A DNA stretch of 63,084 nt, the filler included, from Parachlamydiales bacterium (lineage in GTDB: Bacteria > Chlamydiota > Chlamydiia > Chlamydiales > Parachlamydiaceae), in assembly GCA_020051075.1 (NCBI GenBank). It is 5 parts of 5 records of this genome, joined end to end, with 100 filler letters (N's around TTAATTAATTAA, not from the genome) between each part and the next. Parts side by side here need not be neighbours in the genome. Positions count along the whole stretch, not along the records: positions 10,548 to 28,343 come from JAGVJP010000114.1; 4 more parts are not named here. One strand, 5' to 3'. Of the stretch, positions 22,375 through 25,779 are shown piece after piece. Each line of letters opens with the position of its first letter. Position 1 is the stretch's first letter. The notes under the pieces were generated by a model. It did no database searches. It was not told where the DNA came from and saw only the letters and a program-made list of their open reading frames with translations. The translations under genes were made by a program, and so were the position numbers.

Positions 22375-23478
22375 ATGAAATTCATTCAATTAATTTTCAC
22401 CATCCTCCTGATGTTGTCGATGTTGCTGTTCGATCCTCTCCATGCTGAAAATAAAGAAGATCAGTATGGTGGGATTCTTTTATTAAAGAATTGGAGAGGA
22501 TGTGGGATTGACAACATCAATCAATTATTTAACCAACATTTTCACAAGCATTCCTCACACCATTCTCAGTCTGTTAAGGACCATAAAAGGCACCACAAGC
22601 ACAAGAAACATAAGAAGCACAAGAAACACAAAAGAAAGCGATGTTGTGTGCGAGGCCCGACTGGCACCATCGGTGCAACAGGGCCTACAGCTCCAACCGG
22701 ACCGACAGGCGCAACGGGACCTGCAGGACAAACAGGCTCAATAGGTGCTCAAGGGTTAACCGGGTTCGAAGGACCCCGTGGCCCAATAGGCTCCACCGGA
22801 GACACTGGGGCGACCGGACTGACCGGCCCAACTGGGGCTACAGGCGCAACGGGAATGACAGGAGCGACCGGTGACACAGGACCAACAGGCAATACCGGTG
22901 CGAATGGCTCTTCGTTCCAAGAAAATTTTTTCTTCGTTTACAAAACAACCCAATTTGAACAAATAAGCACTTCTCCTGTAGACAATTTCATTTCTTTTGA
23001 TACCTTTGGAGAGTTCTCTTCGAACTGGGGACCGCCATTAAATCCCTCTCCAAACACCACAACGTTTACTGTCCCCCAATCAGGCGTTTACTTAGTCGCC
23101 TATCAAGCGATGGTATTGCTAAATCAGAGCAACAATGTTGATGGCGTTATAAGCAACCAGCTATATCGCCTCAACGTCACCATTAATGGCATCGATATCG
23201 CTGGAACAGACGTTTATAAGCAATATAGTGAAACTTCTATGTCGGGATATGGTCTTCCTATAGCTGTAGAACCGTTGACGAAGAAGTGCCTTCTCGCTTT
23301 GACCGGAGGCGATACTATCTCTCTGCATCTCATTAGCTATTACCAAGACCAAGTTAAGACTTTGATTTACGAAATCACCTCAGTCACACAATTTGATCCG
23401 CCACCGAATCCACCTACTCCACCCCCACCTCAAACGACATCAGCCTCTTTATCAATTGTGTTGATCAACCCATTATAA
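22375..23478 (+). CDS. Secreted collagen-like protein with BclA/C1q-like C-terminal domain (paralog 1)
   Basis: Signal peptide from ATG 22375, His/Lys-rich segment, CC, 29 triplets (one Gly>Ala), [21 protein letters not shown]. Confidence 0.85.
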
Positions 23479-23527
23479 CGTCAGGGAAATGACATGAAGA
23501 ATTTACGAATTTGCACAACTTCGACTC

Positions 23528-23655
23528 CCCTTTCAAAAAGTAACGCTGCCAGATCCATTTCCTACCATCGTTCCTATCCTTCCCATCCTGTAAAATTTAA
23601 CAGGATGGGGAGGATAGGGAAGATGGGGCAGGATAGTATGTTACTAAGGGATTAG
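23528..23655. repeat. ~130-bp palindromic element (inside-out AGGAT arms); inverted homolog at 42865-42995
   Basis: Core ATCCTGT-aaaattta-ACAGGAT; flanks align to the reverse complement of 42865-42995. Confidence 0.8.
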
Positions 23656-23745
23656 GGTAAATGACTTACGAATTTATCAAAATAGTCGTAAATTCCTCCT
23701 GCAATTTCACTGATTATAAAATTAATATTGGAAAAAGCATCTAAA

Positions 23746-24684
23746 ATGAAAATGTTCACAATACCACTTTCCACACTCATCTGGACTTTATTCTTGTGCT
23801 CTCCTAATCACGTTCAAGCTGAAATTTCGCAAAATCAAAACGAAGTCAAACATCTCATTAAAAAAACAACGTGCAATCAAAATTTTAATGAGAGAAAGCA
23901 TCATCCCCATAAAAAAAAGCTACGTTGTCCTAAAGGTCCTACCGGCCAAACGGGACCCACAGGGCCGCAAGGGGCAACAGGCTCAATCGGAAGCCAAGGA
24001 GAGAATGGCATTCAGGGATCAACAGGTCTGACTGGCGCAACTGGAATAACCGGTCCGACTGGCCCGGCTGGTGCAACAGGTACAACTGGACTGATTGGAC
24101 AAACTGGACCGGCAGGACTAACTGGAGCGACAGGTAACACTGGTGCAACAGGAAATCCCGGTCCTCAAGGACCCACTGGAGCCACTGCATCCCCTGCTGC
24201 TGCAAGCTATCTTTACACATACGCGAGTAATTTCACGTTTCAACAAGATCTTGAAAAAGATATCATTTTAGAGAAATCCATCCGATTTAATTCTTTTGGC
24301 CCTATTTCCACCGATTTTCTTACCATCAACCCCAATCCCGGCACCACTTATACAGTCCCTCAATCAGGATACTATTTAGTCACTTATTCCGTCGAAGTAT
24401 TATCGGATGTACTAACAAATGTGAATTATTTTGCACAACTTCTTGGATTAACAGGGACTGATTTCTCAGTGACAAGTTCTGGCGACATTCTCAAAGAAGT
24501 TCATTGCATGGAAAAAACTGCCGTTGTGTTCTTGACCCCTTCCACCCCTGTCGTGCTACAACTATCGGCATATTATACAAATAATGGCTCTCCTTTTACT
24601 CCGATTCTCACTATTGCCGCACCATCAAAGAATTATAATCCATACACGTCAGCTTCGCTCACCATGGTCCTTATTGATCAATAA
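23746..24684 (+). CDS. Secreted collagen-like protein with BclA/C1q-like domain (paralog 2)
   Basis: Signal peptide (VQA), [10 protein letters not shown], 28 Gly-[23 protein letters not shown]. Confidence 0.85.
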
Positions 24685-24711
24685 GATTAAACTTTTAGTT
24701 ACAAGGTTCAG

Positions 24712-25779
24712 ATGATTAGGAATTTAAAATTATATATATACACGATATTAATGACGCTTCCTCTCATATTTTTTTCAACTCCAATTTATTCTGAACCAAT
24801 GGAAAGTGCTGCTGCTGACAACATTCTAAATGATCGTAAAATCGAAGATGAAATGATTTTCATGCGATCTCGAAAAGAACATCATCAAAAATGTCATCAC
24901 TGTAAAAAAGTGATTGGACCAACTGGGGTGACAGGAGCAACAGGTCCCCAGGGTATCACTGGAGATCAAGGGGCAACCGGTCCTGTAGGAATAACAGGTG
25001 CCAGAGGAGATACAGGCGAGAGAGGTATTAGAGGAGCAACAGGCTCTATTGGAGCGACAGGAGCGACTGGATTAACTGGGATGATAGGGTCTATAGGGAT
25101 GACCGGAACCACGGGAGGAACAGGACTGACTGGAAACGACGGCCCACAAGGTCCCATCGGCAACACCGGTGCAAATGCTCCGGCCAACGATAACTATCTT
25201 TTTGTCTATCTTGGTGCAACTGCTGAATTAAAAAATTGTCAATCTGATGACGCTTGTCGTTTTAATATCGCTTTTGACACAGTGGGAACAGGATCTCCGA
25301 ATTGGCTGGCTGGAATCACTGGTCCAACTTTTGATACCTTTACCGTTCCACAAGATGGAGTTTATTATGTGTCATATAATGCTCAAGGCTTGCTATCCCA
25401 ACAACAATATGTCATTCGGTTTATCAACCAAGGTGCGGGTGTGACAGGGCTGGATGGATATACAAGCCTCCAACTTTCATCAGGGATTGCTGAGCAAAAT
25501 CTTGGAAGATCCGCTCTCGTTCAACTTAATCTAAACGACCAGATTTCAGTAGAAATAAGTGCTCAAGCAATATCAGGTGGACTTGATCTTATCTTACCAC
25601 AACCCGCGCCGGGAGATCTCTCTGGATCTATTAGCGATACACCTTACTATACCCCTTTTTCAACAGCTTCCTTTTCGATTTTCCTGGTCGATCCCAACCC
25701 TCCACAAATGGTTCCTTCACCAGAGAAAAGGGTCAGGGAGCCGTGTCCTTGCCGTTCTGCTTCGACAAAAGAGGGATAA
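24712..25779 (+). CDS. Secreted collagen-like protein with BclA/C1q-like domain (paralog 3)
   Basis: Signal peptide, HHQKCHHC, 29 Gly-X-Y, FTVPQDGVYYV, STASFSIFLV. Confidence 0.85.
   Translation: MIRNLKLYIYTILMTLPLIFFSTPIYSEPMESAAADNILNDRKIEDEMIFMRSRKEHHQKCHHCKKVIGPTGVTGATGPQGITGDQGATGPVGITGARGDTGERGIRGATGSIGATGATGLTGMIGSIGMTGTTGGTGLTGNDGPQGPIGNTGANAPANDNYLFVYLGATAELKNCQSDDACRFNIAFDTVGTGSPNWLAGITGPTFDTFTVPQDGVYYVSYNAQGLLSQQQYVIRFINQGAGVTGLDGYTSLQLSSGIAEQNLGRSALVQLNLNDQISVEISAQAISGGLDLILPQPAPGDLSGSISDTPYYTPFSTASFSIFLVDPNPPQMVPSPEKRVREPCPCRSASTKEG

Follow-up and report, generated by a model that had tools for sequence, protein, structure and literature searches.

Legionella Lcl and the streptococcal proteins Scl1 and Scl2, which are collagen-stalked bacterial surface adhesins, are single-gene systems, and BclA and F-BclA of Bacillus are single-gene homotrimers of the spore coat with stalks of variable length. 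The chains of vertebrate C1q come from three clustered genes. Within C1q, three different chains combine collagen stalks with C1q-fold heads and are joined through N-terminal disulfides (PMC11606958); the only mixed triple helices of different chains demonstrated so far are those of animal collagens, C1q among them. Here an analysis is presented of a 63,084-bp stretch of DNA (termed here the window) from a Parachlamydiales bacterium (assembly GCA_020051075.1), in which three adjacent collagen-like genes, A, B and C, occupy positions 22375-25779 (together termed here the cassette). This three-gene cassette is length-locked, a result that is real and well supported: the lengths of the collagen stalks are locked within each cassette of this genome and free between cassettes. 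From the sequences, we would put at roughly 0.62 the probability that A, B and C together make up a single secreted ABC heterotrimeric collagen fibre in this environmental chlamydia, likely a surface adhesin, the adhesin role being the weakest step.

The closest published case is that of the collagen gene triplets of Pasteuria. McElroy et al. 2011 is reportedly the work that the Pasteuria papers cite for these triplets of Pasteuria collagen-like (PCL) genes. In Pasteuria ramosa, as here, genes of three sequence groups lie in ordered, co-oriented triplets (groups 1-2-3) that have been duplicated whole (PMC13233619; bioRxiv 10.1101/2024.02.09.579640), an organisation called apparently unique to P. 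ramosa (PMC13233619), and one of the proteins, Pcl7, which bears a BclA-like head, has been linked to attachment to the host (PMC7743900). The PCL proteins are endospore proteins of a parasite belonging to the Bacillota, whereas the chains described here carry predicted Sec signals and belong to the Chlamydiota. The available portions of the Pasteuria papers (PMC13233619; bioRxiv 10.1101/2024.02.09.579640; PMC7743900) describe gene order; neither a matching of stalk lengths nor the building of one ABC trimer from each triplet appears in them. The Pasteuria model in PMC7743900 is a homotrimer, and the accessible text of that paper raises heterotrimers only as a possibility; by term search, the word 'trimer' is absent from the accessible text of bioRxiv 10.1101/2025.03.22.644704, and bacteria go unmentioned in that of a 2025 review on heterotrimeric collagens (PMC12562938). 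A literature search of incomplete coverage (i.e., without subscription papers and supplements) found no demonstrated natural prokaryotic collagen heterotrimer and no description of chlamydial collagen cassettes.

An earlier note on this DNA (the original prediction) had proposed that three co-oriented genes share one plan, with 29, 28 and 29 Gly-X-Y triplets in A, B and C and with 91, 91 and 93 residues, respectively, between the first Gly and the first aromatic strand of the head. Open reading frame (ORF) and stalk analysis of the window confirms this for three adjacent genes on the + strand; their start codons are inferred, the mechanical ORFs opening earlier, at 22186 and 23728. The features of the cassette are as follows:

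22375..23478, + strand: chain A gene, 367 aa (stalk 22654-22914; head 22915-23475).
22690..22692, + strand: codon GCT, which puts Ala where triplet 5 of the chain A stalk would have Gly, the sole break in A.
23746..24684, + strand: chain B gene, 312 aa (stalk 23935-24186; head 24187-24681).
24712..25779, + strand: chain C gene, 355 aa (stalk 24916-25176, 29 triplets).

The three N-termini are hydrophobic and signal-peptide-like, and by hydropathy the chains have no further membrane helix. In chain A the predicted signal peptide is followed by a His/Lys patch, a CC motif (Cys at -4/-3 relative to the stalk), the 29-triplet stalk and a C1q/BclA-fold head; in chain B, by a basic patch, a Cys at -3, the 28-triplet stalk, a longer linker and the head; and in chain C, by Cys at -8/-5, the stalk and a head carrying the Cys pair of the C type at residues 176 and 182. 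A Cys precedes the stalk in 6/6 A/B/C chains of the genome (those of the window and those of a second cassette, described below), and in the window trio His/Lys patches lie N-terminal to the stalks. The motifs (F/Y)TVPQxGxY and ASxxxxL are present in A, B and C; past the latter, chain C extends about 27 residues further than A and B, and its C-terminal tail bears Cys. Thr occupies the Y position in 20/29 (A), 18/28 (B) and 16/29 (C) triplets, and charged residues are few in the stalks (4, 1 and 7, respectively). There is no LPXTG anchor, and no gene within the cassette codes for an anchor or a barrel. Many collagen genes of this genome show, by eye, an Arg-Ser/Ala-Lys-like motif before the basic patch, possibly a processing site. 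The Gly-to-Ala break claimed for chain A is present; its site lies outside the contigs from the sole listed DNA sequencing run (share 0.06), so that a sequencing error there is conceivable. A sequencing-run search listed no RNA sequencing run containing the organism.

The three-gene arrangement recurs: beside the window cassette, the genome holds three more trios. On contig C114 a second A-B-C cassette has the identical gene order and 22/22/22 triplets. On contig C29 six collagen genes (L008:93-6942) run X-Y-Z-X-Y-Z--that is, as two trios--with stalk spans of 167/161/162 and 151/149/146 residues and with stalk breaks near residues 18 and 50 in 5/6 and 6/6 chains, respectively; Y and Z lack the pre-stalk Cys. 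The cassette unit, consisting of three position-specific chains, has been copied four times in the genome, and the four cassettes have four different stalk lengths. The distance from the first Gly to the head is 70/70/72 residues in the second cassette versus 91/91/93 in the window, a shortening by 21 in every chain that leaves C its +2 offset in both cassettes; within the window, chain B makes up for its missing triplet by a longer linker and so holds this distance. Stalk lengths thus differ together between the two cassettes, which argues that A, B and C are likely wound together in a single mixed triple helix.

Recent duplication, named at the outset as a possible explanation of equal length, is rejected. 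Heads within the trio are 28-34% identical; in a tree of 12 A/B/C heads (leaving out the fragment P0012) they cluster by position, with support values of 95/94 for A, 92/93 for C and 73/73 for B; and the C29 X, Y and Z pairs are each grouped by position as well (support 97-99). The approximately unbiased (AU) test rejects both the cassette-1 clade (p-AU 0.0047) and the cassette-2 clade (p-AU 0.0003), and with them recent triplication as the cause of equal length. Because the heads group by position and the cassette clades are rejected, the three chains are, by this phylogeny, older than the cassette duplication. Residues specific to each position are likewise kept across cassettes: for example, a Gln and a Cys are invariant in 4/4 A heads, a Glu occurs in 5/5 B heads, and a Cys and a Gly occur in 4/4 C heads. 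Stalk gene conversion left no trace in comparisons of stalk DNA, in which the longest common word is 9-12 nt both within and between cassettes and the third-base identity of Gly codons is 0.09-0.41 in register; since the stalks share no more DNA within than between cassettes, recent conversion does not explain the matched lengths.

By sequence tests, A, B and C are classed as prokaryotic collagen-like proteins with a BclA-like head that falls below the family cut-off. The Pfam collagen profile (PF01391) scores 49-56 bits in all three chains, above its cut-off of 27.2; BclA_C (PF18573) scores 27.2, 16 and 27.6 bits in A, B and C and at best 35.8 bits in the second cassette, in each case below the 38-bit gathering cut-off; and Pfam C1q (PF00386) scores 19 bits in chain C only, below its cut-off of 23.7. 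Matches to the Lcl, Scl1 and Scl2 families (NCBIfam NF046116, NF038330, NF038329) cover the stalk only, at 48-66 bits versus cut-offs of 325-500, short of the NCBIfam equivalog level. The suggested structural comparison of the heads with C1q and BclA, which covers heads A and C, found the C1q/TNF fold in both: the predicted models (pLDDT 64.6 and 74.7) are jelly rolls matching Cbln, BclA, F-BclA and C1QL. The best structural match of head C is the F-BclA head (Z 16.2, root-mean-square deviation 2.4 over 138 residues), with which Caprin-2 C1q and BclA tie, and the compared heads resemble C1q no more closely than they do BclA. BclA and F-BclA (PF18573; PDB 1wck, 9h38) resemble the chains described here in their Thr-rich Gly-X-Y stalk and C-terminal C1q/TNF jelly-roll head (Z 15.7-16.2), whereas their identity to these heads is 16-18%.

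A profile search of 1.84 billion representatives returned 73 matches, among them 7 clear family members that do not come from this genome. As the original prediction had asked of orthologues, chain lengths co-vary: the B-type protein P0009 (55% head identity to cassette-2 B) has a stalk of 135 residues, with 139 to the head, and the C-type protein P0008 (60% head identity to cassette-2 C) has a stalk of 138 residues, with 144 to the head, whereas the cassette-2 B and C stalks are 66 and 66 residues long. P0008 and P0009 are each recorded on a 7,931-bp JGI metagenome contig. The C1q-like kink that had been read into the Gly-to-Ala break did not hold up: the A-type protein P0007 (90% identical to chain A; 29 triplets) has Gly at triplet 5, and the cassette-2 chain A has no stalk break. 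Three other members, P0010, P0011 and P0013, have 24, 31 and at least 24 triplets and lie on separate short contigs that cannot be paired. Head A as query matched 0/60 relatives; a 6-head profile matched 12/399 scored genomes of the order besides G000 itself, all weakly (best E 2e-11); a 12-head profile matched 7/72 family genomes, weakly; and contigs of metagenomes and genomes yielded no locus to P0009 as query.

Collagen matches occur in 63/73 genomes of the family. A sample of 60 regions was hand-picked by eye from the match tables while ORF lengths were in view, and is therefore not blind; together with the four regions of this genome it yielded 127 collagen ORFs. Of these, 36 were set aside because their stalks were frameshifted, overlapping or truncated (11 loci), because they lay at contig edges (3), or through a filter on head length. 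Groups were drawn by hand: a run of four genes entered as two pairs, and two paralogues of outlying length (370 and 74 residues) were kept out of the groups beside them. The stalks of adjacent trios agree to within 15% in 11/12 cases overall and in 7/8 outside this genome (from 8 genomes), versus a shuffled expectation with a mean of 0.44 and a maximum of 5 in 100,000, a comparison that overstates significance inasmuch as kin are not independent; both trios with an internal barrel gene (2/2) match. At 25-35% head identity, same-cluster pairs match in 25/28 cases versus 201/1,524 for other pairs, and at 45% or more in 13/14 versus 4/11. That the match of stalks exceeds chance is also borne out by same-genome pairs from different loci, of which only 13/157 agree within 15%. 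Stalk breaks in genome G200 are in register (15/15/15). Within genome G374, two heads are 84% identical yet their stalks are 21 and 309 residues long; therefore, close paralogues need not keep length.

If A, B and C do form a single fibre, then each chain would be exported by Sec, after which the three heads would select each other and nucleate folding, and the Thr-rich stalks would zip into a triple helix about 25 nm long, as estimated from the 77 nm reported for 91 triplets (PMC12357932). Triple helices are described as nucleating C-terminally and zipping toward the N-terminus (PMC11923368), and chain choice as being made by non-collagenous domains (PMC8968730). Equal length would align the N-terminal Cys and the His/Lys patches in register, whereupon disulfides at the aligned N-termini would fix the trimer and link the fibre with other trimers or with the envelope. 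The host cell, most likely a protist, would meet three different binding faces on the heads, and the fibre would act as an adhesin.

A number of observations weigh against such a mixed fibre. A simple axial/lateral count of charge pairs gives 6 attractive pairs to a CCC homotrimer and at most 1 to any ABC order with offsets of up to 2 triplets; this test is weak because the stalks hold so few charged residues, and the sole charge pair of the second cassette is between B and C. Register assignment by charge thus does not favour ABC. The original prediction stands in part: its claim that co-assembly constrains length passed the two genomic tests named for it (recent duplication and co-variation), but the C1q-like kink is not conserved. 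A repeat hairpin lies between A and B. Adjacent two-gene clusters match in 6/8 cases and pairs split by another gene in 3/4; matching is therefore not special to trios. The G374 trio is unmatched (309/60/21), as four of the dropped, apparently broken loci appeared to be (L034, 26/74; L067, 90/117/175; L069, 457/201; L082, 130/50). P0008 and P0009 presumably come from one shared contig, judging only by the equal 7,931-bp size, and no A orthologue was found for that contig; nor did the head and profile searches find a third complete A-B-C locus, which counts as a miss with these queries rather than as absence. AlphaFold 3 is reported to give no heterotrimer for Clostridioides difficile BclA heads (PMC13188886), and the stalk lengths of F-Anchor and BclA, which are separate fibres of Bacillus, are described as loosely coupled (PMC12357932).

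The last of these points, together with the self-complementary charges of C (6 pairs) and the fact that pairs match as well as trios (6/8), fits the alternative that survives best, namely that A, B and C build three separate homotrimeric fibres (AAA, BBB and CCC) of equal length for side-by-side work, either through N-terminal Cys bundling or as a ruler that sets a common height. Such fibres seem unlikely, though they deserve serious consideration: a ruler would hardly call for a change exact to the residue (21 in A, B and C alike, C retaining its +2 offset) or for stalk breaks that fall in register from chain to chain, as in C29 and G200; a common height is not kept among the four cassettes; and what has been copied four times is a unit of three position-specific chains. 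Still less probable is loose co-assembly, in which A2B, AC2 and ABC trimers would form along with homotrimers and yield combinatorial adhesin tips. Matched two-gene clusters would need such 2:1 trimers, C could self-pair, and combinatorial hetero-assembly is floated in passing for Pasteuria in the accessible text of PMC7743900; nevertheless, a fixed order and conserved position-specific residues fit non-interchangeable subunits better. That equal length is a historical leftover of recent triplication or of old, stalk-limited gene conversion, with no selection on length, is very improbable and already largely refuted, for although old conversion erased by saturation would be beyond the reach of stalk DNA comparison and head identity reaches 45-59% in some of the matched clusters elsewhere, the cassette clades are rejected, lengths match at about 30% head identity within cassettes, and stalk length drifts fast (66 versus 135-138 residues at 55-60% head identity; 21 versus 309 at 84%). 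The secreted ABC heterotrimer is the preferred interpretation of the cassette.

The setting of the cassette, and other features of the window, are as follows:

20352..22364, + strand: conserved chlamydial DUF3604 gene, upstream flank outside the cassette, ending 10 bp before chain A.
23565..23626, no strand: hairpin in the A-B gap, a dispersed intergenic repeat that is not cassette-specific.
25733..26509, - strand: beta-carbonic anhydrase gene, downstream flank, convergent with C and overlapping its end.
10448-10547, 28344-28443, 43053-43152 and 58282-58381: runs of N joining separate contigs, only 10548-28343 being contig C88.
43559-52666: 3,035-aa protein with GT2-like, glucoamylase and GH94 domains.
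32157-33917: secreted-looking BNR/Asp-box repeat protein (sialidase-like propeller).

The domain layout of the 3,035-aa protein is, we take it, that of a cyclic beta-1,2-glucan synthase. The A-B gap is 267 bp and the B-C gap 27 bp, and the A-B gap of the second cassette is 47 bp. The hairpin in the first of these is strong (z -8.1), and its repeat occurs at about 120 places in the genome; a similar palindromic repeat lies near 28640-28700, and the repeat also yields false short ORFs. The closest records to the DUF3604 flank protein come from Protochlamydia and Parachlamydiaceae (74-67% identity). No collagen gene follows DUF3604 in 19/19 relative loci (1.5-kb flanks), nor does one lie beside it in 41/41 named loci (35 with at least 1.5 kb downstream; 8/49 were excluded as weak or partial matches). 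In the relatives G007 and G011 the carbonic anhydrase gene comes directly after DUF3604, and the trio is therefore likely a lineage-specific insert that arrived as a unit. GC content gives no signal of foreign origin (0.44 for the cassette versus 0.43 for the genome), and a scan of the cassette for promoters and terminators returned hits at chance level.

Elsewhere among the surveyed regions, three loci (L009:3465-7208 on contig C31, L038 and L075) show a repeated module in which a collagen/BclA-head gene is followed by a Legionella_OMP-type barrel gene, with matching stalks (48/43, 238/240 and 54/54). Passenger-less beta-barrel genes with weak Pfam IAT_beta matches lie in or beside collagen clusters at L060:4467-5414 and L064:7034-7957, as does a short or broken one, recognised by resemblance, at L032:3680-4252. 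Such Legionella_OMP or inverse-autotransporter-type barrels might be export or anchor partners of the collagens beside them. Pairs of secreted-looking BclA/C1q-like heads without a stalk (C85:54887-56630, L074 and L079) are candidate head-only hetero-oligomers, and a very long, repetitive Gly-Asn-Thr/Gly-Ala-Thr collagen runs across two contig ends (the end of C73 and the start of C4), probably as one gene and a singleton.

Like C1q, the cassette consists of three clustered genes for different chains of matched stalk length. C1q differs in having a conserved kink, of which there is none here, and hydroxyproline at the Y position where these stalks have Thr; moreover, nothing in the cassette points to the (ABC)6 bouquet of C1q. 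It is a build convergent with C1q and not an orthologue: it would work like C1q, but falls below the Pfam cut-off and lacks the kink. More broadly--and here the odds seem even--environmental Chlamydiae may make obligate ABC collagens from three-gene cassettes that would have evolved several times from different head lineages and been copied and given new lengths as units, thereby diversifying host-binding tips, as a bacterial, hydroxyproline-free parallel to C1q that would also explain the Pasteuria triplets. A natural bacterial ABC collagen would mean that C1q-fold heads came to select chains outside animals too, and its heads, of about 170 residues and expressible in E. coli, would be small registration domains for making recombinant heterotrimeric collagen. 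For the Pasteuria triplets, so far unexplained, it supplies a reason that can be tested, and the analysis points to a large, little-described family of surface proteins in environmental Chlamydiae.

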